Shown here: positions 33,020-57,529 of the stretch, one piece after another
How positions within the stretch are numbered: the first letter of the stretch is position 1
Layout: every line of letters starts with the position of its first letter
Assembly: GCA_015062395.1 (NCBI GenBank)
Contig: SUUS01000001.1
Coordinates: 65,429-129,428 of the forward strand
DNA length: 64,000 nt
Reading direction: 5' to 3'
Origin: Alphaproteobacteria bacterium
GTDB lineage: Bacteria; Pseudomonadota; Alphaproteobacteria; CAAHEQ01; UBA3637
The notes under the pieces: model-generated
What the model saw: only the letters and a program-made list of their open reading frames with translations
The model's database searches: none
What the model was told of the DNA's origin: nothing
Made by a program: the position numbers and the translations under genes

Positions 33020-33029
33020 TTTTTCACCC

Positions 33030-34816: not shown

Positions 34817-34884
34817 ATTAAAACTCCTCTATAAATTTCATCATTATTGAAGGTTATACATAACTTTCAAATCAAATTCAAGTA

Positions 34885-34914
34885 AAAAATTAAAGGGGAG
34901 AAAAAACTCCCCCC
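34885..34914 (-). terminator. Rho-independent terminator after proS
   Basis: GGGGAG (34895-34900) pairs with CTCCCC (34907-34912). On the minus strand it is followed by a T-rich tract. Confidence 0.6.
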
Positions 34915-34918
34915 TTTT

Positions 34919-42414: not shown

Positions 42415-42443
42415 TTGACAAGCATTTTTTTATTGTCTATAAT
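42415..42443 (+). promoter_or_regulatory. Consensus sigma-70 promoter of tRNA-Pro(UGG)
   Basis: TTGACA (42415-42420), 17 nt, then TATAAT (42438-42443). The tRNA starts 10 nt downstream. Confidence 0.6.
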
Positions 42444-42453
42444 GCCTTTTATT

Positions 42454-42530
42454 CGGAGCGTAGCTCAGTCTGGTAGAGTACTTGGTTTGGGACCAAGGTG
42501 CCGTAGGTTCAAATCCTATCGCTCCGACCA
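42454..42530 (+). tRNA. tRNA-Pro (anticodon UGG), CCA encoded
   Basis: CGGAGCGTAGCTCAGTCTGGTAGAGTACTTGGTTTGGGACCAAGGTGCCGTAGGTTCAAATCCTATCGCTCCGACCA. Cloverleaf folded by hand: acceptor CGGAGCG/CGCTCCG, anticodon stem CTTGG/CCAAG with loop TT-TGG-GA, T-arm GTAGG-TTCAAAT-CCTAT. Confidence 0.93.
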
Positions 42531-42534
42531 ATAT

Positions 42535-42567
42535 AAAAAAGCGGAAGTTTATACTTTCGCTTTTTTT
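42535..42567 (+). terminator. Rho-independent terminator after tRNA-Pro(UGG)
   Basis: GCGGAAGT (42541-42548) pairs with ACTTTCGC (42553-42560) with one G-U pair, then T7. Confidence 0.7.
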
Positions 42568-43058
42568 GTTGTCCAATTCCCCTGCAAAGCCCTAGGACAG
42601 CCAACTGCTGAAAAGTGATTTTATACCAAAATCGATGTGGTTGCCGAGATTTTTCCAAATTGATATATACTTTTGCCCGAATATATATACCTTGTGCAAT
42701 GTGATTTTTTCGCCAGAGCCACTTGACCGTAAGTTATTGTTTTTGAATAATTGATTATAATGGTATGACATTAACTTTCCGAATCTTGCCAAGCAGTGGT
42801 TGGTTTAGAAACCCAAAAACTGATACCACAATTTGCACACACCTCTAAAAGCCTTATTTTATAAGGAGTTTAAATTTTTTATAACTTATACACATGGTGT
42901 TTGGGGCATATAAAGAGATTTTCATTTTTTTTGAAAAAAATGACTATTTTCTTGCAATTTTAGGTAGAAGTCGTTAAAATGTGACGGATTATAATTTTAT
43001 GCTGATAAATGAGGTGTTTTCATGGCAGACGATATTCAAATTCAAAAAATGGACGGCA

Positions 43059-43178
43059 TCACCTTTTTTTCAAGCTTTTTGTGATTGCTTCAATACCCGC
43101 TTTTACAGCGCGGTCAGCATCGGCCTTGGTTAATCCTGCTGTTTTAGCAATAGCTTCAACTAATTCTGTTTTATTCAT
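43059..43178 (-). pseudogene. Truncated HU/IHF-family DNA-binding protein gene (5' fragment only)
   Basis: Reverse-strand ATG at 43178 has an AAGGAA upstream. It reads MNKTELVEAIAKTAGLTKADADRAVKAGIEAITKSLKK, the canonical HU N-terminus, then hits TGA right after an A7 run. Even with the frame corrected, only GDAV follows before all HU similarity is lost. Confidence 0.6.
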
Positions 43179-43322
43179 TGTATTTTCCTTTCTTTATATA
43201 TAAAGTTAAATGAAGGCTCATGATACCTTCATTTAGTATTAGAGAGAATTTAGATGGGTATGTCAAGAGGAAAATTAATTATACCAATAATCTGCATTAA
43301 GAGTGGCCAGTAATCTTTTTTC

Positions 43323-43351
43323 TTGACAAAAAAACAAAAAAGTGATATAAT
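43323..43351 (+). promoter_or_regulatory. Consensus sigma-70 promoter of the ProRS2-PPTase-ATP-grasp operon
   Basis: TTGACA (43323-43328), exactly 17 nt, then TATAAT (43346-43351). The ATG at 43394 is preceded by AGAGAGAGG. Confidence 0.6.
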
Positions 43352-43393
43352 ACGACATCGTGTTTTAAACATAAAAAGAGAGAGGCTATAAAA

Positions 43394-44908
43394 ATGACTT
43401 TAAAAAATACAAGAGCGAGCAACTATCCTGAGTGGTATCAGAATGTCATAACTGCAGCTGATATGGCAGAAGTATCTTCTTCGCCAGGATGCATGGTTAT
43501 TAAGCCTTGGGGGTATGGGATATGGGAACGTATTCAACGGGTTCTAGATGATAAGATCAAAGAAACAGGTCATGAGAATTGTTACTTTCCTCTATTTATT
43601 CCTTTAAGCTATTTTCAAAAAGAAGCAGAGCATGTTGAAGGTTTTGCTAAAGAAATGGCAATTGTTACTCATAGTCGCTTAACTATGCAAGATGGCAAAT
43701 TGACACCTGATGGAAAATTGGAAGAACCTCTTATTGTTCGTCCTACCTCTGAAACAATTATTGCGGATTCGTTCTCAAAATGGGTCAAATCATACAGAGA
43801 TTTGCCAATTATGATAAATCAATGGGCAAATGTTGTCCGTTGGGAGATGAGACCAAGAATCTTTTTACGAACAAGAGAGTTTTTATGGCAAGAAGGTCAC
43901 ACTGCACATGCTAGTTATGAGGAAGCGGAACAAGAAGCAAAAACCATGTTGAATGTGTATTCTGATGTGGCACGAGATGCTTTGGCTATGCCTGTTATAA
44001 AAGGACGCAAGCCCGAGCATGAAAAATTCCCAGGCGCTGTTGATACATATTGTATAGAAGCAATGATGCAGGATGGTAGAGCTTTACAAGCTGGTACCTC
44101 GCACTTTTTAGGCCAAAATTTTGCCAAATCAGCTGATATTAAGTTTCTAGGTAAGGATGGGAAACAACAATATGCATACACAACCTCTTGGGGTGTAACG
44201 ACACGTCTAATTGGTAGCTTAATTATGACGCACGCTGATGATGAAGGAATGGTCGTTCCTCCAAAGATTGCACCACATCAAATTGTTATCGTCCCTATCA
44301 TCAAAGATAAAGCTCAAAGAGAGGAAGTAATGTCCTACGTGATGCGCTTGTATTCTGCTTTATCTAAACAGAGCTATGATGGCGAAAAAATTCGTGTAAA
44401 AGTTGATACAAGAGACAAGGAATCTGTAGACAAAATGTGGGAGTGGACACGAAAAGGTGCCCCCATTGTATGTGAGGTTGGACCTCGTGACGTAAAAAAC
44501 AATGGTTTAATGGTCAGAACAAGAAATAAGATCAACACCCCAGAATGGAAACAAGTTGTTCAGTTTGATGATTTTGTTTCATCAGCTTCTAAGAGGTTGG
44601 AAGATTTCCATATGGATTTATATAACGCTGCGAATACTCGTTTACAACAAAATCAAAGAACAGATATTACAACGGCAGAGGAAATGCAAGCATATTTTGC
44701 GCAACAAAACTCTTGGGTAAACGGTCAAGGGCAAAAGGTAGCTTTTGTCCGTGGCAAATGGTCTGAAGATCCAGAAAGCGTTGATAAAATGAAGGAAATG
44801 AAAATTTCAATTCGCTGTATTCCTGAGGATCAATCTCAGAAGGAAGGAAATTGCCTTTTGACTAATAAAAAAGCGAAACTTGATGTTATTTATGCAAGAT
44901 CTTATTAG
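43394..44908 (+). CDS. proS: Prolyl-tRNA synthetase, archaeal/eukaryote-like type (no INS domain, ProRS-C1-type C-terminal domain)
   Basis: 504 aa. YPEWYQNVITAADMAEVSSSPGCMVIKPWGYGIWE and the following N-terminus are typical of type-II (archaeal/eukaryote-like) ProRS. Class II motifs RPTSET, FLRTREFLWQEGHTAH and TSWGVTTR. The C-terminus ends ...VIYARSY, with the conserved terminal Tyr of this subtype. Confidence 0.9.
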   Translation: MTLKNTRASNYPEWYQNVITAADMAEVSSSPGCMVIKPWGYGIWERIQRVLDDKIKETGHENCYFPLFIPLSYFQKEAEHVEGFAKEMAIVTHSRLTMQDGKLTPDGKLEEPLIVRPTSETIIADSFSKWVKSYRDLPIMINQWANVVRWEMRPRIFLRTREFLWQEGHTAHASYEEAEQEAKTMLNVYSDVARDALAMPVIKGRKPEHEKFPGAVDTYCIEAMMQDGRALQAGTSHFLGQNFAKSADIKFLGKDGKQQYAYTTSWGVTTRLIGSLIMTHADDEGMVVPPKIAPHQIVIVPIIKDKAQREEVMSYVMRLYSALSKQSYDGEKIRVKVDTRDKESVDKMWEWTRKGAPIVCEVGPRDVKNNGLMVRTRNKINTPEWKQVVQFDDFVSSASKRLEDFHMDLYNAANTRLQQNQRTDITTAEEMQAYFAQQNSWVNGQGQKVAFVRGKWSEDPESVDKMKEMKISIRCIPEDQSQKEGNCLLTNKKAKLDVIYARSY

Positions 44909-44913
44909 AAAAA

Positions 44914-45573
44914 ATGAGCAAAATTTTTCTTTATCATGTAGATAAATCAAAAATTGATGAGTCTCAGCTTTCTGTTCTGGAGTCTATTTTGTCAGCAACA
45001 GAAAACAAAAGATTTAAAAAGATAAAAATGATAGATGCGAGAAAGAATTTTATTCTTTCTCGTTTTCTGATTAATAAGGCATTAATGAATTTCAATTGTG
45101 CGCAAAGATTTCATATTGGTAGAACTATATATGGGAAACCATATTTATCTCCAAATCCTAAAAATTTAAAAATATCAATAAGTCATACGAGAGATATTAT
45201 TTGCCTTTTAATTGCAAAAAATATAGAGTTTATAGGTGTTGATATAGAGGAAAAAAACAGAAAAATAAATAAAAAAGGTATTATAAATTTTCTGTACTCT
45301 CCTGATGAAAAATTGTATCTTAAAACAAAAGATTTGTATAAAAATTTTTTTAAATATTGGACCTTTAAGGAGGCATTTACGAAAGCTCTTGGAAAAGGAC
45401 TTTTAATTCCATTTAATCAAATATCCTTTTCCAAAAAATACCAAAAGTATTATGTTACCTCTGTGCCTATTGATATAAACTCTAATACAACAGGGTTCAT
45501 AGTATGTTTAGATAAAAATGAAAGATCAGCCGATATTAACATAAATAATGTTATTATAGGAGGGATAAAATGA
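44914..45573 (+). CDS. Sfp-type 4'-phosphopantetheinyl transferase
   Basis: GKPYL, SISHT, IGVDIEE and YWTFKEAFTKALGKG (the W/KEA motif). It starts 5 nt after the ProRS2 stop. Confidence 0.85.
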   Translation: MSKIFLYHVDKSKIDESQLSVLESILSATENKRFKKIKMIDARKNFILSRFLINKALMNFNCAQRFHIGRTIYGKPYLSPNPKNLKISISHTRDIICLLIAKNIEFIGVDIEEKNRKINKKGIINFLYSPDEKLYLKTKDLYKNFFKYWTFKEAFTKALGKGLLIPFNQISFSKKYQKYYVTSVPIDINSNTTGFIVCLDKNERSADININNVIIGGIK

Positions 45574-46409
45574 AAAGAATTTGTATTGCGACAGATGAAG
45601 ATAATATCAATGATCCTGAGAATTTACTAATTAGTAAAATTCTTAATGACATGGGAGCTAAAGCAGAATTGACTATTTGGGATAAACAAGAAAGTCTTTT
45701 CAAAGATTGCGACTATGTTTTAATTCGTTCTTGTTGGAATTATCACAAATACCCAGATAAATTTATTCAATGGATAAATTCTCTCAATATTCCAACAATC
45801 AACGCTAAGAGTTTAATCCAATGGAATATTCATAAAAAATATCTTCTTGAGTTAGAAAAACACAATATTGAAATTCCAAAAACATATGTTATTCAAAAAG
45901 AAAATGTAAAAGATTTTAATTTTAATATATTTGATGAATTTGTAATAAAACCAGCAATATCAGCAAGTGGCTATTTGACATATAAATATAATAAAAATGA
46001 TAGTGAAAAGGTAAATTCTTTACTTCCATTGTATTCTTCAGATGTTTTAATACAAGAATTCATTCCGGAAGTAATACAAGAAGGTGAAATATCCTTTGTA
46101 TTTTTCAACAATAGCTTTTCACATGCTGTAAAAAAAATACCTTCACTATCTGATTTCAGAAGTCAAGCAAGATATGGAGGAACTGTTAAAAATTTTATTC
46201 CAAATCAAGCTTTAAAAAATAAGGCAGTAGAAATAGTACAAAAAATCATGGATATCACTAACGAATGCCCTTTCTATATGAGATTAGATGCGGTTTTGAG
46301 AAAAAATAATTTAGTTATAATGGAAATTGAGGCAATTGAACCCAGGCTTTTTTTATCGAATTCAAATTGTGATATCTTTAAAAAAGCTTGGCAATCTATT
46401 CTTCCTTAA
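45570..46409 (+). CDS. ATP-grasp ligase, RimK/GshB-like
   Basis: VIKPAISASG, VLIQEFIP, DFRSQARYGGT (compare the RimK EFRSN..GG motif) and LVIMEIEAIEP. ATGA overlap with the PPTase gene and a GGAGG RBS. Confidence 0.75.
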   Translation: MKRICIATDEDNINDPENLLISKILNDMGAKAELTIWDKQESLFKDCDYVLIRSCWNYHKYPDKFIQWINSLNIPTINAKSLIQWNIHKKYLLELEKHNIEIPKTYVIQKENVKDFNFNIFDEFVIKPAISASGYLTYKYNKNDSEKVNSLLPLYSSDVLIQEFIPEVIQEGEISFVFFNNSFSHAVKKIPSLSDFRSQARYGGTVKNFIPNQALKNKAVEIVQKIMDITNECPFYMRLDAVLRKNNLVIMEIEAIEPRLFLSNSNCDIFKKAWQSILP

Positions 46410-49400
46410 CTGTATCTTCTAAAAGGGATATATACAAAGAAGCCCAGTCTTTAATGGTATTTATATCAAAACGATGAACATGATACCAAAAATTAAAACG
46501 AAGATTGCTTTTCTGCATGTCGACTATCAGAAATAATCCCGCTAATTCTCTTAAGGTTGAATAGTTTAATGTATTCAACAATGGTTCTGAAATGGTTCCA
46601 AGTGTTTCTAAAACTTCTACTTTAGGCCAGACATTGTCTTTTTCTTTGTGATAATTATTCAGCATGATATAGGCATCTGTGAAATAACTTGATCGAGAGA
46701 AATTCAAAAACTTTTCGACATACTTAGGTAAAAGATTCACTGGGTAGTAAGACCTTTCATTCACAAGAGATACAATACTATTAATTTGGGTTATTTGTGT
46801 CATATTAGAAAGAGTTTCATCTAAAGAAATCGGAAGTGGGAATTGTTTAACGAATGGGCCTATTGTTTCTTTAAAATTATCCTCTGTTCGTCCATTGAAA
46901 ACAGTTCCTATTAATAAATTATGTTGTCTTGTTAATTTTACCAATAACTTCGAATAAACAAACAACAATACTGAAAAAACGGATACATGCGCTTTATGAG
47001 CAAATTTATTTAAGGATTCATATACTTTTTCTGAAGAAAAAATGGTATAGCAACTTGACGGATAACACTGTTCAAAAAATTCATCTCCGGTTTTATTTGG
47101 CAAAATTACAGGACGTGCAATACCAGCATATAACCCACCAAAGAAGGCTTCATTTTCCTTTTCTGTCTCCAGTAAAAATTTATGTTGCCAATCTACATAT
47201 TGATCATAGAGAACTGGATTTGGGAGTCTCAAATGTGATTTTTGAAGAAAAGAGGCATAAAATTTTCTTAATTCTTCAACAAATACCGTCACAGATGTTC
47301 CATCGAATGGCAAATGATGCGTAAAAAGAAGACATATAAACTGATTATTATTTAACTTTAAAATTTTTAAAATCCAAGGTGGGGTTTTTGTAATATCAGG
47401 AAAAGAAGATGTTAACGTACATGCTAAATTTTTTATATATTCAGCAACATTTTCTACACCCTTCATATTCACAAAAATACTTTCACTAGAAATGAAATCT
47501 TTTATATTACAAGTTTCATAATGATTATCAACATAACAATGTGTCAAAATTGGATGTCTTGAAATAACCTCTTTTAAGGCGTTCAAAAATGAATTCTTTT
47601 TTAGTTCGCAATGGAAAAGTATTGGTATCAATAAATATCCATATTTAATTCTTTCTAATGCCACCCACCTTTGTTCTTCATATGATAACTTGTTTTCACT
47701 ATTGTTCTTATCCAAGACAATCTCTGTTTTTTCACATAGTTTTTTATCCAATGATTTACTGGAACAATTTTTGATACAAAAGGCTGTTAAATTTCTTAAA
47801 GTTCTTTCTTTAAATACAACACTAACAGGGAATGAAATATTTAACAAATGTCTAATAGCGTTACGTAATTCTATTGCGCTTAAAGAATCAAGTCCCAAAT
47901 CAAAAAGATCATCATCTTTTTCAATATGGCAATTATGTGTATATTTGTCTAAAACTCGAGCAACTTCGGATGAGACAATACTAGGAATGTCTTGAATGCT
48001 GTATTGAGTTAATGTATCCGTGTTCTTTTCCTCAACAGGCAAATAATCTTTTGCTAACAATCTAAAGAACGGGCTATTTTCGAGTTTATATTTTCTTAAA
48101 AAGATATTCCAATTCATAGGTAATAAAATTACCTGTTCTTGTAAACTAAGTATTGATGACATTATCTCATCGAAATCGTTTTTTTTAAGATAAGAATATC
48201 CCTTTTCTTCTAATTTCTGCTGTAGATTCTTGTTTATATCAATAGTTCCTAAGTCCCCCCATGCTCCCCAATTAATACTTAATGCTGGTAATCCCAAAGA
48301 TATCCTATATTTACACACAGAATCCAAGAATGCGTTTGCTGTTGTATAATTAGATTGTCCAGGATTTCCTATTACGGATACAGCGGAAGAAAAGACTACA
48401 AAAAAATCTAACTGTGTATTTAAAGAGAGTTTATGTAAATTCCATACTCCAAGAACCTTTGCCTTTGCAATTTTCTTAAAGTCCTCCATAGTCGTATTTG
48501 TAAAGGATTTATCCTCAATACAACCAGCCGCATGCACAATTCCACCGATATTTTTTATATCAAGTTTTGAAGACAATGCAAAAAACTTGCTCTCATCGGA
48601 AATATCCATACTTATATATTCTAGGTCTAATGTGTCATCAAGCAGCTTTAAAGTTCTTATTTGTTCTATCACCTCATTCTTTTCCCGACGGCCAACTATC
48701 ACAATTCGTTTTGCACCATTTTTAATGAGCCACTTACTGGTTAAAAGTCCTAATGCACCTACCCCCCCTGTCACTAAATATTGTTTTTTAGGAACTATAG
48801 TGAGTTTCCGTTCTGATGATAAAGAAATGGGGGCTAAAGTTGCTTCAAAGACACTTTTCCCGCCTGGATCAATTTGAAAAAAACTAAACGACTTTTGCTG
48901 ACGTATACACGAAGCAATCTTTGAAATAGAATTTTCTGTCAATGCCTTTGCAAAAAAACAAGAGCATTTGATTTCTGAATTTTCAAGACAAATTGTTTTT
49001 AAAAGAGAAACTAGAGATTCATTTAAAAAGTCATTACCAACAAAAATAAACGAAATATTTTCTATTTTCCCCATTAAAAAGGCTTCTTTTAAGGAATAAA
49101 AAACGTTTTTGATCTTATTTAAATAAAGCCTTAAGATATCAGATGAGGTGTAATTCTGCACATCATCGGAAATACTGTCTATAACATATACAATACGTTC
49201 TATTTTCTTCTTAAAAGAATCAAGTTTTTCTTTTAAGAAGAATGAGTTATTTGAAATATCTGTACTTACAAGGAGATTCTTTTCTGATGAGAAGTGTGCT
49301 ATTTGACTTTTATCTCCTATAATTAACGAATTCTCTATATAAGATTTAGAAAAATTAGAAAGCGAAACTGATTCCCATTGAATTTTGTATAAATCGTTTC

Positions 49401-52400
49401 TCCAACTTGCCTTTTGTAATAAATCAACCGGCTCAAGATAATATTTTTTTAAATCAAAAGGATAAGTTGGTAGTTCAATTAATAAACAATTATCTTTCGG
49501 TAGGATATGGTCAAAATTAACGGATATTCCTTTCGAAAATAATTTTCCAAATGCTGAAAGTAATTGTTCTGTATCATCAGTAGTTTTTCTCATCATAGGT
49601 ATATATGTTGCGTTCTGCTCATCATAACATTCTGCAACCATATTAAGAAGCACAGAATTTGGACCTATTTCCAAGAAAATATCAACATCCTTATTTTTTA
49701 AATTATGGATCATATTTTCAAAATTGACAGGTTGAATCATGTGGTTACACCAATAGTCTGAAGATATTTCTCCTGTTTGAATAAAATCCCCCGTTACATT
49801 TGAAAGTAATTTTATAAAAGGATCCTTAAATGAAAATTTGGAAAGATATTTTTTATATACCGCCACAAGGGGATTAGCAACACTTGAATGGCCAAAACTG
49901 CTGTTATCTAATTTTTGTGCTTCAATCTTCTGATCATGTAAAGCTTTAAAAAGTGATAGTATTCTCTCTGTTGGACCAGATACAACCACTAAATTAGGTG
50001 TATTGATAGATGCTATAGATATCTCATTATAGTTTTCCAACAGTTTTTCGACAGTATTTTTATTAGCTCTGATTGCTAACATTTTTGCATGAATTTTTAA
50101 TGAAGTTAACAAAACAGCTCTATGATAAACTATTTGAAGTAATTCATTTAATTTTAGTATACCAGCACAGTAAGCTGCAACGTATTCTCCCAAACTATGT
50201 CCTAATACAAATTTAGGCAAAATTGCCATTTGTTTTAAAATTTCTAGAATAGATACTTCTATGGCTACAATTGCCAGTTGATTTAAAATAACATCTTGTT
50301 CTGAATATTTTTCCTGTTTCCATATTATATCGATTAGATCAAAATCCGTAAATTTCTTTATAATTTTATTACATTCCTGAATCTTTTTCTTAAAAATAGC
50401 ATTTTTCTCATACAGCCTCTTTCCCATCCCAAAATATTGAGATGTATAACCAGAAAAAATAAAGGCAAGCTGTTGTTTTTGTGAGACCTTAAAATCATCT
50501 TTTGTAACAGATGGGAGTTTTAATCGTTTTTCAGTATTTGACAGTTCGTATATCAAACGATCCATTGTATTCGCAACAAAAGAGACCCTATAATCAAAAT
50601 GATATTTCCTCTTTAAAAGTGAATAAGAGATATCCTGTAGACGTAAATCACGATGATTTTCGAAGAAAATTCTATGATTGTGTATTATTTTAACTAAATC
50701 CTCGAATTTCTTTCCAGAAAAAACAAACAAATAAAAATTATTCTTTTGTTTTGTTTGGTTGTTTTTTTTGTGTGAATAACTTTCTAAAATGACATTAGCG
50801 TTAGTACCACCAAGACCAAAGGAATTCACTAAGCAATAATGTTTCTTTGATTTCCAAGGGATCGTTTTATTATTTACATAAAAGGGAGAATCATCCAACT
50901 CCAATAAGGGGTTATTTTTTTTAAAATGAAGTGTAGCAGGTATTTGTTTATGCTGAATACATAAAATTGCTTTTATTATCCCTGCCATGCCAGAAGCCCA
51001 ACCGAGATGACCTATATTAGTTTTTACGCTCCCAATAACGCAATCCCTTTTCCTATTATTACCGAAAACATTTTTTAATGCTTGGATTTCAACTGCATCT
51101 CCAACGACAGTTCCAGTTCCATGTGTTTCAATAAAAGAAATTTTATCTGGCAGTATGTTTGCATCTTTTAAAGCTTGCTGTAATGATCGTGTTTGTCCAT
51201 CAATTGTTGGTGCTAGAAAATTAGATTTCCCATTATTTCCATCATTACTAACACCACTTCCTGAAATAATGGCTAAAATATTATCTTTATCTTTTATGGC
51301 TTTTGATAGTGGTTTTAATAAAACTACTCCTAATCCTTGGGCCATCATCATACCTTCTGATCTTTCATCGAAAGTACGTGTATGGCCATCTGGTGACCAA
51401 GGCATGTCTTTTTGGAAAGTATATTTATGTTTTGATGGGGACATAATGTTTACAGCACCAACTAGTGCCATTTCACATTCTCCATTCAAAAGAGCTTGTT
51501 TTGCCAAGTGAATTGCAACCAACGATGAAGAACATGCAGATTGTACATTAATACTTGGTCCTTCTAACCCCAATTTAAAGGAAACTTTTGTTGGTAAGTA
51601 ATCCTTATCCCCGCCCATCATAACTTGCAAATCCGAAAAACGTTCGAAGAAATACCTATTAGAACGATAATCTAAGTTTGGGTTAAGGTTATTAACAAGA
51701 TAGCTACTAAATCCTTGGGAAGCAAAGACTCCTATCTTTTTAGTCGTATTATTGTTAAGATATCCTGTTTTTTCTAGTAGTTCCCAAGATAATTCCAAAA
51801 ACTTTCGTTGTTGTGGATCCATCATTTCTGCTTCAGTCTTTGAATATCCAAAGAATTCAGCATCAAACAAATTTGCATCATCAATTGTAGATGAACAAAA
51901 TACATCATGCTCAAAGGGATCCAGCATTGACAAATCCTGTGATGGGCCAAAAGATTCGATACTTTCTTTACCAGTTGAAAGAAAATTCCAAAATTCGTCA
52001 GGAGTATGGCACTTAGGAAAATTGCATGCCATTCCTATTACAGCGATTTTTTCTTTTACAGGTTTTCCAAAATCTTGAATAACTGCTTCTTTCCCCTGTA
52101 TTATATTTCCTTTTAAGAGATCAGATACAGCATTAAATGTACTATTTTTTAGTAGCATAGCAACTGGTATTTTTTGCTTGAATGTTTCGAAAATTTTCGT
52201 GTATAGCTGAAGCAAGAGTAATGAGGTTCCACCTAGCTCAAAGAATGTCTTATTTTTGTCAAAGTCGGTTATGTGCAAAAGATCTCGCCAGATTTCTTCC
52301 AACTTAGTCAATTCTGAATGGGTTGTTGTTTCTTTTTTTTCTATATACGTTTGAATTAATACTTTTCTATCCAGTTTCCCTGACGGGGTTCTCGGTAATT

Positions 52401-53811
52401 TGTCAATTACGACAAAATCTTTAGGAGTCATATAATTAGGCACCAGAGTACCAATGGATTGCTTTATATCCAAAATCTCAGTTTTTTCGTTTTTCAAGAC
52501 AATAAAAGCGACAAGGAAAGTGGGCCGATTTTCAGCCATTATCGGACAAACAGCACATTCAAGAACATTTTTATCTTTTGATAATAGGTACTCTATTTCT
52601 GCAAGTTCTATTCTATACCCACTTATTTTTACTTGGTCATCTTTTCGCCCAACGAATTCAAGTTGCTTTTTCTTGTTTAGCTTGACAATATCGCCTGTTG
52701 CATATAGAAGATTTTTTGTGTTTTGAGGATCTGGGATGAAAGATTTATTTGTATCCTTTGGATTATTTACATACCCTTTAGCAATAAACGGAGCACAGAT
52801 AAACAATTCACCCTCCGTAGTAGCTGTAAGTTTTTCATTTAGAATTTTTAACTGTATATTGGATATAGGCTTTCCTATGGGAGGGAGTTTCCCCCACTGA
52901 TTAACATTCTTTGGTAATGTAAACGAAGTGACAACATGGGTCTCACTCGGACCATACTGATTGATTAGACGGCAATGCTTTAGAATTTTAAAAAAAGAAC
53001 GAATTACTGGCGTTATAATCAACTGTTCACCGGCTGTGATTACTTCTTTAAGAGAGGTAGGAAAGGTTTTATTAAGATCTGCGATTTGCGCTATGTAATT
53101 TAACATTACTGCGGGGAGAAAAATCCGTTCAATCTTGAACTTGTCAATTAAGTACAGCAGTTTTTCAGGATCTTTTCTTTCATTTTCTTCAATCAGTACT
53201 AATGAAGCACCCGTACATAAAGTAGAAAAAATTTCTTGAAAAGAAACATCGAAGCTAATTGGGGCAAATTGTAATGTTCTTTTTATCGCAGATTCTTTAA
53301 TTTGCCATGTAATAAGATTTTCAAGAACTGATGTTGGCATAACAACACCCTTTGGAGCTCCCGTAGAACCAGAAGTAAATATAATATAGGCCAATTTACC
53401 AAAACCGTTATTGTTTACGGTTTTATTTCCCCTTGAATTTTTAATTATCTTTTCAAAAAAAACAAACTTTTTATTTCTTTTGTCAATGGTTACATCATCT
53501 GTGATAATTAAATTTGTACCGGATTTTTCCTGCATAAAATTCAAACGCTCGACAGGATAACTCTTATCAAGTGGAACATAAGGGTTTCCAGACTTTAGAA
53601 TTCCTAAAATAGAGATAATTAACTCTATTGATCTGTCAAATAGTACTCCTACTGGTTTCTTATAATTTAATGATTTTATATAACCTGCAACTAAATCTGA
53701 TTTGAAATCTAATTCTCCATAAGTTAGCTCTATACCATCCTTAATAATGGCTACCTTATCGGGAGTCTCGACACAAATCTTCTTAAAATTGTTATATAAA
53801 CTACTTTGCAT
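46396..53811 (-). CDS. Hybrid NRPS-PKS megasynthase, A-T-KS-AT-KR-ACP-C (2471 aa)
   Basis: All core motifs are found in order; see the domain sub-features. There is no TE or reductase release domain. The protein ends in a condensation domain with an intact HHxxxDG. Confidence 0.95.
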   Translation of the reverse strand: MQSSLYNNFKKICVETPDKVAIIKDGIELTYGELDFKSDLVAGYIKSLNYKKPVGVLFDRSIELIISILGILKSGNPYVPLDKSYPVERLNFMQEKSGTNLIITDDVTIDKRNKKFVFFEKIIKNSRGNKTVNNNGFGKLAYIIFTSGSTGAPKGVVMPTSVLENLITWQIKESAIKRTLQFAPISFDVSFQEIFSTLCTGASLVLIEENERKDPEKLLYLIDKFKIERIFLPAVMLNYIAQIADLNKTFPTSLKEVITAGEQLIITPVIRSFFKILKHCRLINQYGPSETHVVTSFTLPKNVNQWGKLPPIGKPISNIQLKILNEKLTATTEGELFICAPFIAKGYVNNPKDTNKSFIPDPQNTKNLLYATGDIVKLNKKKQLEFVGRKDDQVKISGYRIELAEIEYLLSKDKNVLECAVCPIMAENRPTFLVAFIVLKNEKTEILDIKQSIGTLVPNYMTPKDFVVIDKLPRTPSGKLDRKVLIQTYIEKKETTTHSELTKLEEIWRDLLHITDFDKNKTFFELGGTSLLLLQLYTKIFETFKQKIPVAMLLKNSTFNAVSDLLKGNIIQGKEAVIQDFGKPVKEKIAVIGMACNFPKCHTPDEFWNFLSTGKESIESFGPSQDLSMLDPFEHDVFCSSTIDDANLFDAEFFGYSKTEAEMMDPQQRKFLELSWELLEKTGYLNNNTTKKIGVFASQGFSSYLVNNLNPNLDYRSNRYFFERFSDLQVMMGGDKDYLPTKVSFKLGLEGPSINVQSACSSSLVAIHLAKQALLNGECEMALVGAVNIMSPSKHKYTFQKDMPWSPDGHTRTFDERSEGMMMAQGLGVVLLKPLSKAIKDKDNILAIISGSGVSNDGNNGKSNFLAPTIDGQTRSLQQALKDANILPDKISFIETHGTGTVVGDAVEIQALKNVFGNNRKRDCVIGSVKTNIGHLGWASGMAGIIKAILCIQHKQIPATLHFKKNNPLLELDDSPFYVNNKTIPWKSKKHYCLVNSFGLGGTNANVILESYSHKKNNQTKQKNNFYLFVFSGKKFEDLVKIIHNHRIFFENHRDLRLQDISYSLLKRKYHFDYRVSFVANTMDRLIYELSNTEKRLKLPSVTKDDFKVSQKQQLAFIFSGYTSQYFGMGKRLYEKNAIFKKKIQECNKIIKKFTDFDLIDIIWKQEKYSEQDVILNQLAIVAIEVSILEILKQMAILPKFVLGHSLGEYVAAYCAGILKLNELLQIVYHRAVLLTSLKIHAKMLAIRANKNTVEKLLENYNEISIASINTPNLVVVSGPTERILSLFKALHDQKIEAQKLDNSSFGHSSVANPLVAVYKKYLSKFSFKDPFIKLLSNVTGDFIQTGEISSDYWCNHMIQPVNFENMIHNLKNKDVDIFLEIGPNSVLLNMVAECYDEQNATYIPMMRKTTDDTEQLLSAFGKLFSKGISVNFDHILPKDNCLLIELPTYPFDLKKYYLEPVDLLQKASWRNDLYKIQWESVSLSNFSKSYIENSLIIGDKSQIAHFSSEKNLLVSTDISNNSFFLKEKLDSFKKKIERIVYVIDSISDDVQNYTSSDILRLYLNKIKNVFYSLKEAFLMGKIENISFIFVGNDFLNESLVSLLKTICLENSEIKCSCFFAKALTENSISKIASCIRQQKSFSFFQIDPGGKSVFEATLAPISLSSERKLTIVPKKQYLVTGGVGALGLLTSKWLIKNGAKRIVIVGRREKNEVIEQIRTLKLLDDTLDLEYISMDISDESKFFALSSKLDIKNIGGIVHAAGCIEDKSFTNTTMEDFKKIAKAKVLGVWNLHKLSLNTQLDFFVVFSSAVSVIGNPGQSNYTTANAFLDSVCKYRISLGLPALSINWGAWGDLGTIDINKNLQQKLEEKGYSYLKKNDFDEIMSSILSLQEQVILLPMNWNIFLRKYKLENSPFFRLLAKDYLPVEEKNTDTLTQYSIQDIPSIVSSEVARVLDKYTHNCHIEKDDDLFDLGLDSLSAIELRNAIRHLLNISFPVSVVFKERTLRNLTAFCIKNCSSKSLDKKLCEKTEIVLDKNNSENKLSYEEQRWVALERIKYGYLLIPILFHCELKKNSFLNALKEVISRHPILTHCYVDNHYETCNIKDFISSESIFVNMKGVENVAEYIKNLACTLTSSFPDITKTPPWILKILKLNNNQFICLLFTHHLPFDGTSVTVFVEELRKFYASFLQKSHLRLPNPVLYDQYVDWQHKFLLETEKENEAFFGGLYAGIARPVILPNKTGDEFFEQCYPSSCYTIFSSEKVYESLNKFAHKAHVSVFSVLLFVYSKLLVKLTRQHNLLIGTVFNGRTEDNFKETIGPFVKQFPLPISLDETLSNMTQITQINSIVSLVNERSYYPVNLLPKYVEKFLNFSRSSYFTDAYIMLNNYHKEKDNVWPKVEVLETLGTISEPLLNTLNYSTLRELAGLFLIVDMQKSNLRFNFWYHVHRFDINTIKDWASLYISLLEDTVKEE
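46399..47694 (-). other. C-terminal condensation domain (aa ~2040-2471)
   Basis: LLFTHHLPFDGTSVTVF (HHxxxDG, His2165/His2166/Asp2170). About 430 aa, the typical C-domain length. Confidence 0.8.
47767..47979 (-). other. ACP domain (aa ~1945-2015)
   Basis: LFDLGLDSLSAIELRNAI (Ser1976). Confidence 0.85.
48232..48786 (-). other. Ketoreductase catalytic subdomain (aa ~1676-1860)
   Basis: YLVTGGVGALGLLTSKWL, HAAGCIEDK (LDD-like, hinting at B-type), SSAVSVIGNPGQSNYTTANAFLD (Tyr1822). The preceding aa ~1450-1675 look like the structural psi-KR half, with no DH HxxxGxxxxP motif. Confidence 0.85.
49552..50475 (-). other. Acyltransferase domain (aa ~1113-1420), non-canonical specificity motifs
   Basis: FIFSGYTSQYFGMG appears in place of the usual GQGSQ. 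The active site is GHSLGEY (Ser1206). SFGHS sits where HAFH or YASH normally does. Confidence 0.85.
50782..52050 (-). other. Ketosynthase domain (aa ~588-1010)
   Basis: IAVIGMACNFP, DPQQRKFLE, VQSACSSSLVAIHLA (Cys760), ETHGTGT (His897), KTNIGHLGWASG (His935). Confidence 0.92.
52102..52314 (-). other. Thiolation (PCP) domain (aa ~500-570)
   Basis: FFELGGTSLLLLQL, with Ser530 as the phosphopantetheine site. Confidence 0.8.
52357..53811 (-). other. Adenylation domain (aa ~1-485), proline-like specificity code
   Basis: A3 YIIFTSGSTGAPKGV, A4 FDVSFQEIF, A5 NQYGPSETHV, A6 GELFICAPFIAKGY, A7 YATGDIV, A8 GRKDDQVKISGYRIELAEIE, A10 PRTPSGKLDRK. Boundaries are approximate. Confidence 0.9.
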
Positions 53812-54043
53812 GATTCTGAATGAAACTCACAACATCCCCTATCGCTTTCATTTTGGCTATTTCTTCATTTGGAAAAGAAATATTAAATTTTTCTTCCAAC
53901 CGAAAAAATAAATCCATTTTATCTAAGGAATCCACTTCCATTTCTTTAAAAGACATATCACTGGTCAATATCTTATCATGTAAAGCGAACTTTACCTCTT
54001 TTAACGTTTCTTGAACTATTTGAAAAATATCGTTATCACTCAT
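53801..54043 (-). CDS. Discrete acyl carrier protein
   Basis: 80 aa. MEVDSLDKMDLFFRLEE (DSL serine motif). AGGAGG RBS. Overlaps the megasynthase start by 11 nt. Confidence 0.8.
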   Translation of the reverse strand: MSDNDIFQIVQETLKEVKFALHDKILTSDMSFKEMEVDSLDKMDLFFRLEEKFNISFPNEEIAKMKAIGDVVSFIQNHAK

Positions 54044-55004
54044 TTTTGCCTCCTGTCAATGTTAATAAACAATTACACCAAGAAAAACCCGTTCCAAATC
54101 CAGATAATACAAGGTAATTAGCATCTTTTTGTTTCAGATGTGGCTCTAGGATTAATGGGATTGATGATGAACTCGTATTACCATAATTAGCCGCTTTGAA
54201 TTTTAACTGATTTTCTTTTAGATTCAGGGTCGAAGATAATCTTTCCAGTAGATATCTTGATGGTTGATGACACAAAAACTCAGAAATATCACAAGTATCC
54301 AGTCCGTTTTTTAACAATAAGTTTTTAATTGATGCTGGAATTTCTTTCAACACATTATTAAAGACCATACGACCATCCATTCTTAAAAAATTTTTTTCTA
54401 TTATGGTCTCATAAGAATTTGGCAATGTTCCAAAATCCCAATCTTTTAAAATATATCCTGTTGAAACATCTTTTGTTATATAAGTCACTGTTGCTGCGTC
54501 GCCAAAGAGTAATACTGTATTTTTATCTTTTGGGTCTAGAATCCTCGATAACTGGTCACATGTGAAGAAGAGAGCGTTTTTCAAATGAAGGGTTTTCATC
54601 ATAGATAAAACGGTTAGTAAAGCATGGCAAAAACCAGCACATCCTTGACCGATATCAAAAGTAATACATTTTTTTGATAAACCTATTTTATTATGTAAAA
54701 TCGCGGACATATATGGAGCCTTATGATCTGGTGTTTGTGTTACCGTACATACTAAATCAATATTTTCAATGTCAATTTTGATTTTTTTCTCTAAATCATG
54801 CCATGCAGATAAACACATATCAGCCAAAGTCTGATGTTCTTTTATTTTAGACCTCCTAATTATTCCCAATTTATTTTCTATGAAATCTGGACTTACCTCA
54901 AAAGTTGTTAATAAATCCATATTATTTACATAGTTATCTGGAATATAAGTGCCAATACATTTTATTTTAAAGTTTTGCAAGCTCATCCCTCCTATTGATT
55001 TCAT
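54036..55004 (-). CDS. KASIII (FabH-like) beta-ketoacyl-ACP synthase
   Basis: DIGQGCAGFCHAL (Cys), FLCHQPS (His), ANYGNTSSSSIPLIL (Asn): a complete Cys-His-Asn triad. The start is uncertain (55004 or 54986). Overlaps the ACP gene by 8 nt. Confidence 0.85.
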   Translation of the reverse strand: MKSIGGMSLQNFKIKCIGTYIPDNYVNNMDLLTTFEVSPDFIENKLGIIRRSKIKEHQTLADMCLSAWHDLEKKIKIDIENIDLVCTVTQTPDHKAPYMSAILHNKIGLSKKCITFDIGQGCAGFCHALLTVLSMMKTLHLKNALFFTCDQLSRILDPKDKNTVLLFGDAATVTYITKDVSTGYILKDWDFGTLPNSYETIIEKNFLRMDGRMVFNNVLKEIPASIKNLLLKNGLDTCDISEFLCHQPSRYLLERLSSTLNLKENQLKFKAANYGNTSSSSIPLILEPHLKQKDANYLVLSGFGTGFSWCNCLLTLTGGKNE

Positions 55005-56067
55005 ATATTGGGAAATATGTTGGAATTTCAGAATTTTGATAATCTAGTATTAGTTGTGGAATATCTTCCCAACAATAGGTATACACGTCATCTATTATAG
55101 GCATCCAATTGTGCGAAATTGCATAGTTCATCGCATCTAAAGCTTCCTGACGATTTGCATAATGAGTATTTACATGTATGTGTCGATTAATGCATTCAAC
55201 CGTTCTTGAAATAGGAAGTAAGGATCCTGTCTTCCAACCACATGATGAAATTACGGCGTTCCTTCCCAATCCTTTTAGTGCTATTTTTGTGAATGTTCCT
55301 CCTAAATTATCTATAAATATTGATGCTCCCTCATTATGTGTTTCTCTTGAAATATACGACAAAAAATCTTTTTCAAAATCCTTAAATGTGGTTCGATTTA
55401 TGGGGATTATCCCTGAAGAACGAGCATATCTCTCTCTGTACTCATTTGATACCGTCATATAAACACTAAACCCCACTTTTTTTGCGAGAAGAAGTTCAGC
55501 ATATGAAACTCCACCACCATAAGCAAAAACGGACAATCCCTTTGGCTTTCGTTTCGAAAAGGTTTGTATTTTCCAACAGCCATACGCTTGCCGCCAATTT
55601 GAATAAGCAGAAATGAAGCGACCAGAGAATGCGGCCCATTGTTTCAAGGAAAATTGTGAATTTGGGGGTATCTTAATAACCTGTTCCTCTTTCAATTTGA
55701 TTTTTTTTGCTAAATTTCCCATAATTCCTTTTGCATCATAACCCGCTATCTTTATCGGATAACCTTGGGCGTCAGAGATACCATTCCCAAAATAAATGGC
55801 AAAATCACCAATTTCCACTGAGGAAACCTTCTTTCCTCTATTTTGAATATAAAGAACACCAGTATTACCCAAAATTATTTCTTCTTCTGCTCTATCTTCA
55901 TTAATGTTTGTGGGAACTTTTTGTACAGCATGTAAGATGTTTGCTTCAAAACAACCATAAACAGGTAAAGCCAATACCTCATCATCCTCAATATCCGGAA
56001 AATGAATTATTTTTCGTTCTAAAATAGATGAATCCTTCTGTAAAACATACGCCTCTGTTTCAATCAT
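54967..56067 (-). CDS. MDR-superfamily NAD(P)-dependent oxidoreductase (enoyl-reductase or CCR-like candidate)
   Basis: 366 aa. Rossmann segment VFAYGGGVSYAELLLAKKVGFSVYMTVSNEYRERYARSSGIIPINR fits the MDR pattern GxGGVGxxAxQLAKxxGAxVxxT. GroES-like N-terminal half. Confidence 0.65.
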   Translation of the reverse strand: MIETEAYVLQKDSSILERKIIHFPDIEDDEVLALPVYGCFEANILHAVQKVPTNINEDRAEEEIILGNTGVLYIQNRGKKVSSVEIGDFAIYFGNGISDAQGYPIKIAGYDAKGIMGNLAKKIKLKEEQVIKIPPNSQFSLKQWAAFSGRFISAYSNWRQAYGCWKIQTFSKRKPKGLSVFAYGGGVSYAELLLAKKVGFSVYMTVSNEYRERYARSSGIIPINRTTFKDFEKDFLSYISRETHNEGASIFIDNLGGTFTKIALKGLGRNAVISSCGWKTGSLLPISRTVECINRHIHVNTHYANRQEALDAMNYAISHNWMPIIDDVYTYCWEDIPQLILDYQNSEIPTYFPIYEINRRDELAKL

Positions 56068-56840
56068 TTTTTGCTCCGAAGTAAATACGTTTTACTCAAA
56101 GTACTTGGCTGTATTTTGGATATTATACTAAAACCAATTTGTTTAATCTCATCCTCTGATACATCTTCGTATAAAAGAGTTGCAGCTTTTTGTGGTAAAC
56201 GTAACAGAATATTAACATTAGTTTTGGCGGTATCTTTAATTTTTAATAATGTTTTTTTCTTATTAGATAGTCCATTTGCTAAAAGTACGATATTTTCATC
56301 CTTATACGAGAAATCAAAGGATCTCTTTTTTATAAACGTGAAATCTTTTGAAATATCTTTGGAGCACGTCTGTTTGATATACGCTTCAGAGGCTTTAAGA
56401 GCTTGTGTATCATAATCCAAACAAACTGGTATAATCCTCTGATAATTTTGTTTAAGTTCAATTAATGTTTCAGGGTGGTATCCACTACCAGCCATAAGAC
56501 AACGTTTCTGGCTGGATAGATCCTTAATAAGATTAAATTCGCAAAGAACTCCAGCATATCCTTCTTTTTCAAGAATGGATATGCTATTTACCTTTTCACC
56601 ATTCAAAAAATCCTTAACCTTGTTCCTTTCTAATTCTTTTATATACTTATTCCATTTTAAAGAAATTTCCTTTTTATCATCAGAAGATAAAGAAGTAAGC
56701 AAGTCAGAGATTTCATTTTCAGATAAACCAATTAAAATCTTCCAAAAATCCTGAAAGACTAATAAGTCAGGTTCAGTGTAATAAGCCTTTAAAGGTATAG
56801 ATAAAACCTTTTGCGTAATTTGTAATATGGACACTCTCAT
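56064..56840 (-). CDS. Nicotianamine-synthase-like (CntL-like) SAM-dependent transferase candidate
   Basis: 258 aa. RCLMAGSGYHPETLIEL versus NAS VAFVGSGPLPLTSIVLA. VCLDYDTQALKASEAYI versus NAS xNxDxDxxANxxA. VLLANGLSNKKKTLLKI...ILLRLPQKAATLLYEDVSEDEIKQIGFSIISKIQPS...TYLLRSKK versus NAS VFLAALVGM..EEK.KVI...LVVRSAHGARAFLYPVVD..DI..GFEVLSVFHP...NSVIIARK. The comparison is from memory of the family consensus. Confidence 0.5.
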   Translation of the reverse strand: MRVSILQITQKVLSIPLKAYYTEPDLLVFQDFWKILIGLSENEISDLLTSLSSDDKKEISLKWNKYIKELERNKVKDFLNGEKVNSISILEKEGYAGVLCEFNLIKDLSSQKRCLMAGSGYHPETLIELKQNYQRIIPVCLDYDTQALKASEAYIKQTCSKDISKDFTFIKKRSFDFSYKDENIVLLANGLSNKKKTLLKIKDTAKTNVNILLRLPQKAATLLYEDVSEDEIKQIGFSIISKIQPSTLSKTYLLRSKK

Positions 56841-56875
56841 AATTCATACATCAAATCATTCAAACATTTTCGTTT

Positions 56876-56905
56876 AGTATACTTTAAAATACACCCTAGA
56901 GTCAA
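56876..56905 (-). promoter_or_regulatory. Candidate promoter for the NAS-like/MDR/KASIII/ACP/megasynthase operon
   Basis: Minus strand: TTGACT (56905-56900), 18 nt, then TATACT (56881-56876). It lies about 35 nt upstream of the ATG at 56840. Confidence 0.45.
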
Positions 56906-56912
56906 CAAAAAA

Positions 56913-57353
56913 TTACTCACTGACAGCAGTTGAAGAAAAAATAGCTTCTGCAACAATTCTATTGTTGATTCTAATTGTTCCTTCAAACTTATAAGCATTA
57001 CCGATAGAGTGTTTTTTTATAGCCTCAATGTAAAGAGTATCTCCAGGGCGAGCTTGCCCTCTAAATTTTGCACTTTCAATAGTCATAAAAAGAAAAATTA
57101 AATTATGACATTTTCTTTCTTTAAGGTCAAAATACATCAGTATATTCGACAATTGGGACATTGCTTCAACAAAGAAAGTTCCAGGAAAAATGGGGTTATT
57201 TGGGAAATGTCCTTTTAAGAAGAATTCATCTGATGAAATTTCTTTTATGCCCGAAATTTTATCACTGGTATAGTCCAACACAGCGTCAACCATCAACATA
57301 GGATAACGATGCGGAAGAATTGTTTTTATTTTTTCTAAATCTAAACTTGGCAT
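56913..57353 (-). CDS. fabZ: FabZ-like 3-hydroxyacyl-ACP dehydratase
   Basis: LPHRYPMLMVDAVLDY and GHFPNNPIFPGTFFVEAMSQ (catalytic His and Glu context). It is not in the usual lpxD-fabZ-lpxA context. Confidence 0.85.
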   Translation of the reverse strand: MPSLDLEKIKTILPHRYPMLMVDAVLDYTSDKISGIKEISSDEFFLKGHFPNNPIFPGTFFVEAMSQLSNILMYFDLKERKCHNLIFLFMTIESAKFRGQARPGDTLYIEAIKKHSIGNAYKFEGTIRINNRIVAEAIFSSTAVSE

Positions 57354-57386: not shown

Positions 57387-57450
57387 TGTGATAAGAACAA
57401 CTTTTTAGACAGGGACAAAAGAATGTGTCTAAAAAGTTGTTCTTATCACA
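57387..57450. repeat. Perfect 25-bp inverted repeat with a 14-nt spacer
   Basis: TGTGATAAGAACAACTTTTTAGACA (57387-57411) and its exact reverse complement TGTCTAAAAAGTTGTTCTTATCACA (57426-57450). It lies 2 nt from the 3' end of tRNA-Pro(CGG) and 33 nt from the fabZ-like ATG. Confidence 0.9.
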
Positions 57451-57452
57451 TT

Positions 57453-57529
57453 TGGTCGGAGTGGCGGGATTTGAACCCACGACCCCTACGTCCCGAACGT
57501 AGTGCTCTACCAAACTGAGCTACACTCCG
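57453..57529 (-). tRNA. tRNA-Pro (anticodon CGG), CCA encoded
   Basis: Reverse complement is CGGAGTGTAGCTCAGTTTGGTAGAGCACTACGTTCGGGACGTAGGGGTCGTGGGTTCAAATCCCGCCACTCCGACCA. Acceptor CGGAGTG/CACTCCG, anticodon stem CTACG/CGTAG with loop TT-CGG-GA. Confidence 0.93.

Follow-up and report, generated by a model that had tools for sequence, protein, structure and literature searches.

The window, a stretch of 64,000 nt on contig SUUS01000001.1, holds at ~43.3-57.4 kb a locus in which the gene for a hybrid non-ribosomal peptide synthetase-polyketide synthase (NRPS-PKS) with a proline-type adenylation (A) domain converges on an operon headed by a second gene for prolyl-tRNA synthetase (ProRS2). Distant relatives of this synthase are also accompanied by a ProRS gene, and here we describe the locus, this coupling and its possible meaning. 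The GC content of the window is ~32%, and several JGI metagenomes hold contigs identical to the window contig. The genes and features of the locus and its surroundings are as follows.

34919 to 36637, minus strand: ProRS1, a complete P-type ProRS with the INS editing domain; a context gene outside the cluster
42454 to 42530, plus strand: tRNA-Pro(UGG), left flank (ARAGORN and Rfam, promoter scan, sequence read)
43059 to 43178, minus strand: truncated HU-like gene, 39 aa, open reading frame (ORF) translation MNKTELVEAIAKTAGL...
43323 to 43351, plus strand: sigma-70 promoter TTGACA-17-TATAAT with extended TG, 12/12 match, native to ProRS2
43394 to 44908, plus strand: ProRS2, 504 aa, an archaeal/eukaryote-type (E-type) ProRS (TIGR00408, Pfam)
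44914 to 45573, plus strand: Sfp-type phosphopantetheinyl transferase (PPTase; Pfam ACPS and AASDHPPT_N)
45570 to 46409, plus strand: DcsG-like ATP-grasp ligase (Pfam GSH-S_ATP, RimK and ATP-grasp_3)
46396 to 53811, minus strand: single-module hybrid NRPS-PKS synthase, 2471 aa (Pfam, motifs, A-domain code)
53801 to 54043, minus strand: discrete acyl carrier protein (ACP), 80 aa (Pfam PP-binding)
54036 to 55004, minus strand: FabH-type ketoacyl-ACP synthase III (KASIII; Pfam ACP_syn_III and ACP_syn_III_C)
54967 to 56067, minus strand: divergent reductase of the medium-chain dehydrogenase/reductase (MDR) superfamily, enoyl-reductase-like (Pfam ADH_zinc_N just under cutoff)
56064 to 56840, minus strand: putative nicotianamine synthase (NAS)/CntL-like aminobutyryl transferase dependent on S-adenosylmethionine (SAM), 258 aa (transitive Pfam NAS match, fold match)
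56913 to 57353, minus strand: FabZ/FabA-like dehydratase, first gene of the minus-strand operon (Pfam FabA, 2.5e-25)
57387 to 57450, no strand: inverted repeat, perfect over 25 nt with a 14-nt loop (repeat search)
57453 to 57529, minus strand: tRNA-Pro(CGG), right flank, pointing into the locus (ARAGORN and Rfam)

In the plus-strand operon, ProRS2 and the PPTase gene are 5 nt apart, and the PPTase and ATP-grasp genes overlap at ATGA. On the minus strand, the genes for the synthase, the ACP, KASIII, the MDR reductase and the 258-aa protein are chained by overlaps of 11, 8, 38 and 4 nt. The convergent 3' ends of the ATP-grasp and synthase genes overlap by 14 nt, and a distance of 1.5 kb separates ProRS2, which shares its operon with the cluster PPTase gene, from the synthase 3' end. 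GC content falls from 0.39 in ProRS2 to 0.26 in the PPTase gene; however, GC at third codon positions is uniform across the genes, so the drop is not decisive for horizontal transfer.

The synthase is a modular hybrid NRPS-PKS with all seven domains present and their motifs intact. The Pfam order is AMP-binding, PP-binding, ketosynthase (KS), acyltransferase (AT), ketoreductase (KR), PP-binding and Condensation, and the domains occupy residues 11-479 (A), 587-963 (KS), 1117-1429 (AT), 1678-1852 (KR) and 2066-2469 (condensation, C), with the carrier serines at Ser530 (thiolation, T) and Ser1976 (ACP). A motif scan found TSGSTGAPKG, GGTSL, SACSSS, HGTGT, GHSLGE, GGVGALG, YTTAN, GLDSL and HHLPFDG. 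The Stachelhaus code of the A domain, DVQFIAQVVK, is 9/10 identical to the proline code DVQFIAHVVK; it was read by alignment to a segment of GrsA, for which the numbering used gave DAWTIAAICK. In the PDB sequence search, the terminal C domain matched generic amide-forming C domains only.

The AT domain (49525-50463) carries the motif SFGHS, and its relatives in the family have xAGH[ST]; neither corresponds to HAFH or YASH. The AT motif, together with conserved genes for KASIII, ACP, FabZ-like dehydratase and MDR reductase, suggests an unusual or dedicated ACP-linked extender, and the extender unit of the window AT is probably unusual. KASIII matches FabH structures in the PDB down to E 1.5e-37 and shows a Cys-His-Asn triad in its translation, and the MDR protein has weak PDB matches to quinone oxidoreductases and a PKS enoylreductase domain. 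ACP-linked cassettes for unusual extender units are known in modular PKSs, such as TcsA-D for the allylmalonyl unit of FK506 and the crotonyl-CoA carboxylase/reductase systems. Like them, the window combines ketosynthase, carrier-protein, dehydratase and MDR-reductase genes with a neighbouring PKS module, and neither the malonyl nor the methylmalonyl motif is present in the AT of that module. It differs in that its MDR protein is very divergent; reductive carboxylation and an extender role of these genes would be predictions.

Against Pfam, the 258-aa protein gives no match even when E values up to 10 are allowed. Its best PDB sequence matches, CntL (the first of them, at E 0.23) and sialic-acid-binding proteins, lie at E of at least 0.2 and include no AzeJ or VioH, whose presence in the PDB copy is unconfirmed. 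However, 31 of its 56 homologues match Pfam NAS, and its AlphaFold model (pLDDT 95) has MtNAS (3fpe) and CntL (7c9m) as top Foldseek hits at a TM-score of ~0.72, ordinary methyltransferases reaching at most 0.54. The model thus suggests the NAS/CntL fold, and the protein has a near-invariant Glu71. Unlike opine/nicotianamine-type metallophore loci, the window has no opine dehydrogenase or metallophore transporter, and the gene lies in an NRPS-PKS operon. A 90% identical copy of the gene, with the same MDR and FabZ-like neighbours (the latter an upstream fragment), occurs in L128 (Logan SRR29134219, 1.4 kb), so a second variant of the window-type cluster exists in another sample. For the ATP-grasp ligase, the sole PDB sequence match is DcsG (6jil, E 9.5e-10), and the identical gene elsewhere matches DcsG_N.

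An earlier description of this DNA, made from its letters and hereafter called the sequence-only reading, had anticipated this layout. Its ORFs, overlaps and gaps, the operon of ProRS2, PPTase and ATP-grasp ligase behind a TTGACA-17-TATAAT promoter, the A-T-KS-AT-KR-ACP-C order, the proline-like code and the Cys-His-Asn KASIII were all recovered. The MDR-fold reductase was borne out as well, though very divergent, and so was the nicotianamine-synthase-like protein, by fold and transitive homology though not by a direct Pfam NAS match.

ProRS genes linked to the synthase family

Apart from identical copies, the window synthase has no close homologue. Its nearest full-length relatives are 30-34% identical over 99-100% coverage, and those with the same domain content are 2436-2612 aa long. 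The family is undescribed and horizontally mobile. Its cassette consists of PPTase, MDR reductase, KASIII, ACP and synthase, with a methyltransferase gene next in most cases, and the host GC of the family loci ranges from 0.25 to 0.71. MDR homologues adjoin the synthase at most family loci, and the gene order KASIII-ACP-synthase also occurs at L105, L106, L107 and L117. In L115, a tyrosine-type integrase gene and tRNA-Met (13786-14996) lie directly beside the cluster, which indicates that the family is mobile on integrative islands. The A-domain codes read DVQF[IV]A[QH]VVK nearly throughout, several being the exact proline code, so the proline-type code is conserved across the family.

An E-type ProRS gene lies 0.8-2.4 kb beyond the synthase 3' end in L105, L106 and L107. 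Scanning metagenomes with a terminal C-domain profile yielded 20 further loci, and mapping placed a ProRS gene next to the synthase in L116, L117, L119, L121-L124, L125 and L126. The arrangements differ: ProRS closes a co-directional gene string in L116, lies 146 nt downstream of the synthase in L117 and stands between an NRPS gene and the synthase in L125 (NRPS-ProRS-synthase). In L121-L124 and L126 it is convergent, after genes for a thioesterase, a beta-lactamase-like protein, a methyltransferase and a major facilitator superfamily (MFS) protein. The order in L119 is ProRS-PPTase-MDR-synthase-methyltransferase, with the same ProRS-PPTase junction as in the window.

Clustering of the C domains at <55% identity gave 11 lineages. 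A ProRS gene lies within 10 kb of the synthase in 7 of them and is absent in two (L109 and L115); the other two were not assessable, one of them having a non-proline code. All of the synthase-linked ProRS genes are E-type. The coupling between ProRS and the cluster is real, since 7 of the 11 independent lineages have E-type ProRS genes near the synthase, often within one operon with it. The sequence-only reading had raised the question of such co-occurrence in other genomes, and it is found there far beyond chance.

Other genes recur around the synthase. An MFS exporter gene adjoins ProRS in L105 and in the L121 group, and class A beta-lactamase-like genes are present in four independent versions of the cluster, L105 (17567-18427), L109 (13079-13897), L111 (8114-8947) and L121 (12028-12945), but are absent from the window. 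The recurring beta-lactamase-like genes hint at a strained lactam or lactone or at hydrolytic self-protection, and, judged by gene content, the MFS, beta-lactamase-like and ProRS genes together look like a resistance module. A TauD-type dioxygenase gene stands beside the synthase in both lineages without ProRS (L109, 14053-14880; L115, 988-1845).

The low-GC versions of the cluster are headed by a gene of the isocitrate/isopropylmalate dehydrogenase family (L106, 843-1982; L107, 5895-7034; L117, 2-1012). The L106 cluster contains a FabZ-like homologue (37% identity), and L106 also encodes FabD, FabG and all the subunits of acetyl-CoA carboxylase.

Origin of ProRS2

Two complete ProRS genes that differ in architecture are present in the window genome. 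The NF006625 match of ProRS1 spans the whole length (675 bits, cutoff 558, positions 1-559), so the complete bacterial-type ProRS that the sequence-only reading had placed 6.8 kb away is confirmed. ProRS1 occupies a conserved slot, ProRS1-PlsY-DprA-TopA-PFK, as in the relative L103. ProRS2 is an E-type enzyme: it matches TIGR00408 above the cutoff (490 bits, cutoff 437), contains tRNA-synt_2b, HGTP_anticodon and ProRS-C_1 (PF09180), ends in Tyr and lacks the INS domain. Such coexistence has a parallel in Bacillus thuringiensis, in which a P-type and an E-type ProRS (BtProRS1 and BtProRS2) occur together (PMC11229370); the window genome likewise has one complete ProRS of each architecture. No cluster has been reported by BtProRS2, whereas the window E-type copy heads an operon with the cluster PPTase.

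Within 16.7 kb, the ProRS2 promoter shares its perfect score with a single other site, which drives tRNA-Pro(UGG); the total number of promoter-like sites in the region is not above the shuffled expectation. The ProRS2 promoter is kept upstream of the cluster-less orthologue in L010, and homology to cluster-less ProRS2 loci stops at the ProRS2 stop codon. The promoter and ProRS2 thus form a resident unit, to whose end, after a gap of 5 nt, the PPTase and ATP-grasp genes were joined.

For ProRS2, more than 120 clusters of homologues reach at least 69% identity, and ProRS1 also has many alphaproteobacterial homologues, with a similar count of close clusters. The orthologues of ProRS2 stand in varied contexts, next to DnaA, DnaE and CstA (L010, 89% identical), next to UvrC (L012, 82%) and next to a radical-SAM cluster and a transposase gene (L007, 81%), a fourth being that in L009 (74%). 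None of these four loci has the synthase, PPTase or ATP-grasp genes. A scan of one genome per species gave 80 ProRS2 loci, of which ~40 come from metagenome-assembled genomes of gut/rumen alphaproteobacteria at 66-73% identity. From the four contexts and the 80 loci, ProRS2 had appeared to be merely a gene of the lineage; this view was revised, since distant homologues of the cluster carry ProRS too.

In the relative L103, whose ProRS1 is 88% identical, the synteny PPDK-PFK-TopA-DprA-PlsY-ProRS1/MsbA is kept and diverges just after MsbA, and neither ProRS2 nor the cluster occurs within 10 kb. In L043 (CALXPZ010000012.1, 2789-8900), an E-type ProRS gene is located directly upstream of PlsY-DprA-TopA, where the window (30533-36637) and L103 have ProRS1. 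This looks like an in-situ swap of ProRS type, and it suggests that P- and E-type ProRS replace each other in place in gut alphaproteobacteria.

In L007 (8728-21515), the orthologue lies between the transposase gene and a separate specialised-metabolism-like cluster, which encodes a radical SAM/SPASM protein, ScmC, a nucleotidyltransferase, a PNP_UDP-family protein, two more radical SAM proteins and a hydrolase, an AlaRS-like gene following. It is a second instance of a ProRS2-type gene beside specialised-metabolism genes.

Possible roles of the linked ProRS

The domain order suggests a pathway in which the A domain would load L-proline, the KS and AT would extend it once, with a probably unusual extender that KASIII, the FabZ-like dehydratase and the MDR reductase may build on the discrete ACP, and the KR would reduce the beta-keto group. 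Release as an amide by the terminal C domain would then give a small compound of the 3-hydroxy-3-(pyrrolidin-2-yl)propanamide type. In the window genome this product may be tailored by the NAS/CntL-like aminobutyryl transferase and the DcsG-like ATP-grasp ligase, in place of which most relatives would use a Tam/HvrF-like methyltransferase. Such a proline-headed product or intermediate could mimic proline, prolyl-adenylate or the prolyl-tRNA end and hamper ProRS, probably the bacterial P-type such as ProRS1, while the co-expressed E-type ProRS would keep tRNA-Pro charged. In the window, the protector would be the resident E-type ProRS of the lineage, whose promoter the PPTase and ATP-grasp genes behind it would share. 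Self-protection of translation from a proline-mimicking product is, in our analysis, the best reading of the coupling between ProRS and the cluster, and we would give it an even chance of being correct. In its favour, the complete P-type ProRS1 of the window genome is a possible sensitive partner.

Resistant aminoacyl-tRNA synthetases (aaRSs) are established in clusters for aaRS inhibitors: MupM (IleRS) for mupirocin, BorO (ThrRS) for borrelidin, ObaO (ThrRS) for obafluorin, AbmK (SerRS) for albomycin, AgnB2 (LeuRS) for agrocin 84 and a TrpRS for indolmycin. As in those systems, the synthetase is linked to the cluster and its amino acid is a building block, a second synthetase for the same amino acid, though of the other type, is encoded in the window genome, and the linkage is conserved over homologous clusters. 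Unlike in those systems, the linked enzyme of the window is a resident E-type ProRS that is widespread without the cluster, not a dedicated divergent paralogue. The target would moreover be ProRS, its inhibition being inferred, and the literature searched describes no ProRS example. Our searches found no cluster linked to ProRS and no bacterial natural product with a ProRS-based resistance gene, in agreement with the sequence-only reading, which had known of none.

Several observations weigh against self-protection. The sequence-only reading took ProRS2 for the resistant or bypass enzyme of the cluster, like the extra divergent aaRS copies of inhibitor producers. ProRS2 is not an extra copy that came with the cluster, and it is not a dedicated, producer-restricted or divergent aaRS. 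In a neighbour-joining (NJ) tree it lies deep inside the gut alphaproteobacterial clade as sister to the cluster-less 89% orthologue. Its promoter, being kept in L010, is native and not specific to the cluster. About 40 other species of gut alphaproteobacteria have cluster-less orthologues, 66-89% identical, and tblastn detected no cluster gene within 10 kb of any of the 87 non-identical ProRS2 loci (L007-L093). The same reading had held that ProRS2 would be simply a housekeeping gene of the lineage if relatives without the synthase kept ProRS2, PPTase and ATP-grasp at this site; relatives do keep ProRS2, but at other sites and without the PPTase and ATP-grasp genes. ProRS2 departs from the consensus at 1 of 180 highly conserved columns and shows no unusual active-site change. 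The L109 and L115 lineages have no ProRS within ~10 kb, the cluster-linked ProRS genes are not monophyletic, and the coexistence of both ProRS types in B. thuringiensis involves no cluster (PMC11229370). The window genome is the one for which two ProRS genes are established; for its relatives, the sole indication of both types is the similar number of close clusters of ProRS1 and ProRS2. Finally, the extender role of the accessory genes, the product structure, the inhibition of ProRS and the insensitivity of ProRS2 are inferred.

Two simpler versions of a resistance ProRS were examined and rejected. A single co-transferred clade of resistance ProRS genes is excluded by the separate NJ branches on which the linked genes lie. 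As for convergent active-site changes, column 220 sets the other linked enzymes, with Thr or Ala in place of Cys, apart from the reference set, and the window enzyme has Cys; since the reference set was picked for similarity to ProRS2, this split is probably phylogenetic.

Four other explanations were considered, and each of them fits fewer observations than self-protection of translation. The synthase might drain proline and ATP so that a co-expressed ProRS sustains the charging of tRNA-Pro, or the two might share proline-responsive control, with no inhibitor involved. Both enzymes do consume proline and ATP, ProRS lies inside operons in L116, L117, L119 and L125, and ProRS2 is free of resistance-like substitutions. 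However, this explanation, which we judge unlikely, leaves unaccounted for the E-type-only linkage and the MFS and beta-lactamase-like genes, and we know of no NRPS cluster that carries an aaRS for a purpose of this kind, which counts against it.

It is very unlikely that the adjacency is incidental, that is, that the cluster landed beside an ordinary E-type ProRS gene between two tRNA-Pro genes with no functional tie. Such an origin would agree with the cluster-less orthologues in many species and varied contexts, the native promoter and ordinary sequence of ProRS2, the HU-pseudogene scar upstream of it, and the mobility of the family, as seen in the integrase and tRNA-Met of L115 and in the break of synteny with L103 after MsbA. 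On the other hand, an E-type ProRS is found no more than 10 kb from the synthase in 7 of the 11 independent lineages and often shares its operon, the chance of a single-copy gene lying that near is below ~1% per lineage, and the ProRS-PPTase junction recurs in L119.

About as improbable is a biosynthetic role, in which the linked ProRS would feed Pro-tRNA(Pro) to a tRNA-dependent step and the tRNA-Pro genes at the flanks would belong to the machinery. In valanimycin biosynthesis, the SerRS VlmL serves such a tRNA-dependent step. The two inward-pointing tRNA-Pro genes flanking the window locus would suit this role, and aaRS paralogues with biosynthetic functions exist (reviewed in PMC12945691). 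However, no tRNA-Pro gene was found near any other family locus, the conserved gene set contains no aminoacyl-tRNA-using enzyme of the Fem/GNAT, cyclodipeptide-synthase or LanB type, and the A domain, judged by its code, already activates proline.

Least probable of all is that the NAS-like enzyme makes azetidine-2-carboxylate (AZE) or another proline mimic from SAM, which the A domain loads and ProRS discriminates: NAS-type enzymes do use SAM to build azetidine rings, ProRS mischarges tRNA with AZE, which Pro-specific A domains also accept (PMC11794875), and the window code differs from the proline code by Q in place of H, but the NAS-like gene is confined to the window-type cluster, the other family loci lack it and still carry ProRS, and several members have the exact proline code. 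The methyltransferase beside the synthase in L105 is Tam/HvrF-like in the PDB sequence search, with no AzeJ or VioH chain among the matches listed, although the presence of these chains in the PDB copy is unconfirmed; the idea of an AzeJ-like methyltransferase in the relatives was rejected.

Returning to self-protection of translation, we suggest only tentatively, from the analysis as a whole, that the family could be the first natural-product class directed against bacterial P-type ProRS, with E-type ProRS as a portable immunity determinant. If this is true, chemical warfare would help explain both the spread of E-type ProRS into about one fifth of bacteria (~22%, PMC11229370) and the P-/E-type swaps at one chromosomal slot in gut alphaproteobacteria (L043 versus the window), in parallel to IleRS2 and mupirocin. 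The family offers a testable reason for the patchy distribution of the two ProRS types in bacteria. Because the window organism is an uncultured gut/rumen alphaproteobacterium, any effect of the compound may be exerted within the gut community. As a drug target, ProRS has been validated with halofuginone and in antiparasitic programmes. A cluster family whose proline-loading synthase is accompanied by an E-type ProRS, in hosts ranging from 25% to 71% GC, is a direct lead to a new class of inhibitors by resistance-guided discovery.

Flanking regions

The tRNA-Pro genes for UGG and CGG bracket ProRS2 and the cluster as an inverted pair, both pointing inward, which the sequence-only reading had left unremarked. 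tRNA-Pro(UGG) has its own perfect promoter (42415-42443) and a terminator-like hairpin. The locus lacks the integrase and tRNA 3'-end direct repeats of a tRNA-gene-integrated island: no integrase was found among the window ORFs scanned, and no att-like direct repeats around the tRNA-Pro genes.

Upstream of ProRS2, ~0.75 kb (42560-43320) contains no intact ORF and holds the truncated HU gene; the identical HU-like gene in L001 matches Pfam Bac_DNA_binding. This region is probably a rearrangement scar. On the other side, the inverted repeat at 57387-57450, between tRNA-Pro(CGG) and the FabZ-like gene, could from its sequence be a terminator or an operator. Further to the left (39863-42213), a 392-aa ORF without a family match is followed by a 274-aa ORF that consists of an autotransporter beta-barrel only. 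Synteny with the closest relative ends just before this pair, which may be a split or decayed autotransporter gene.

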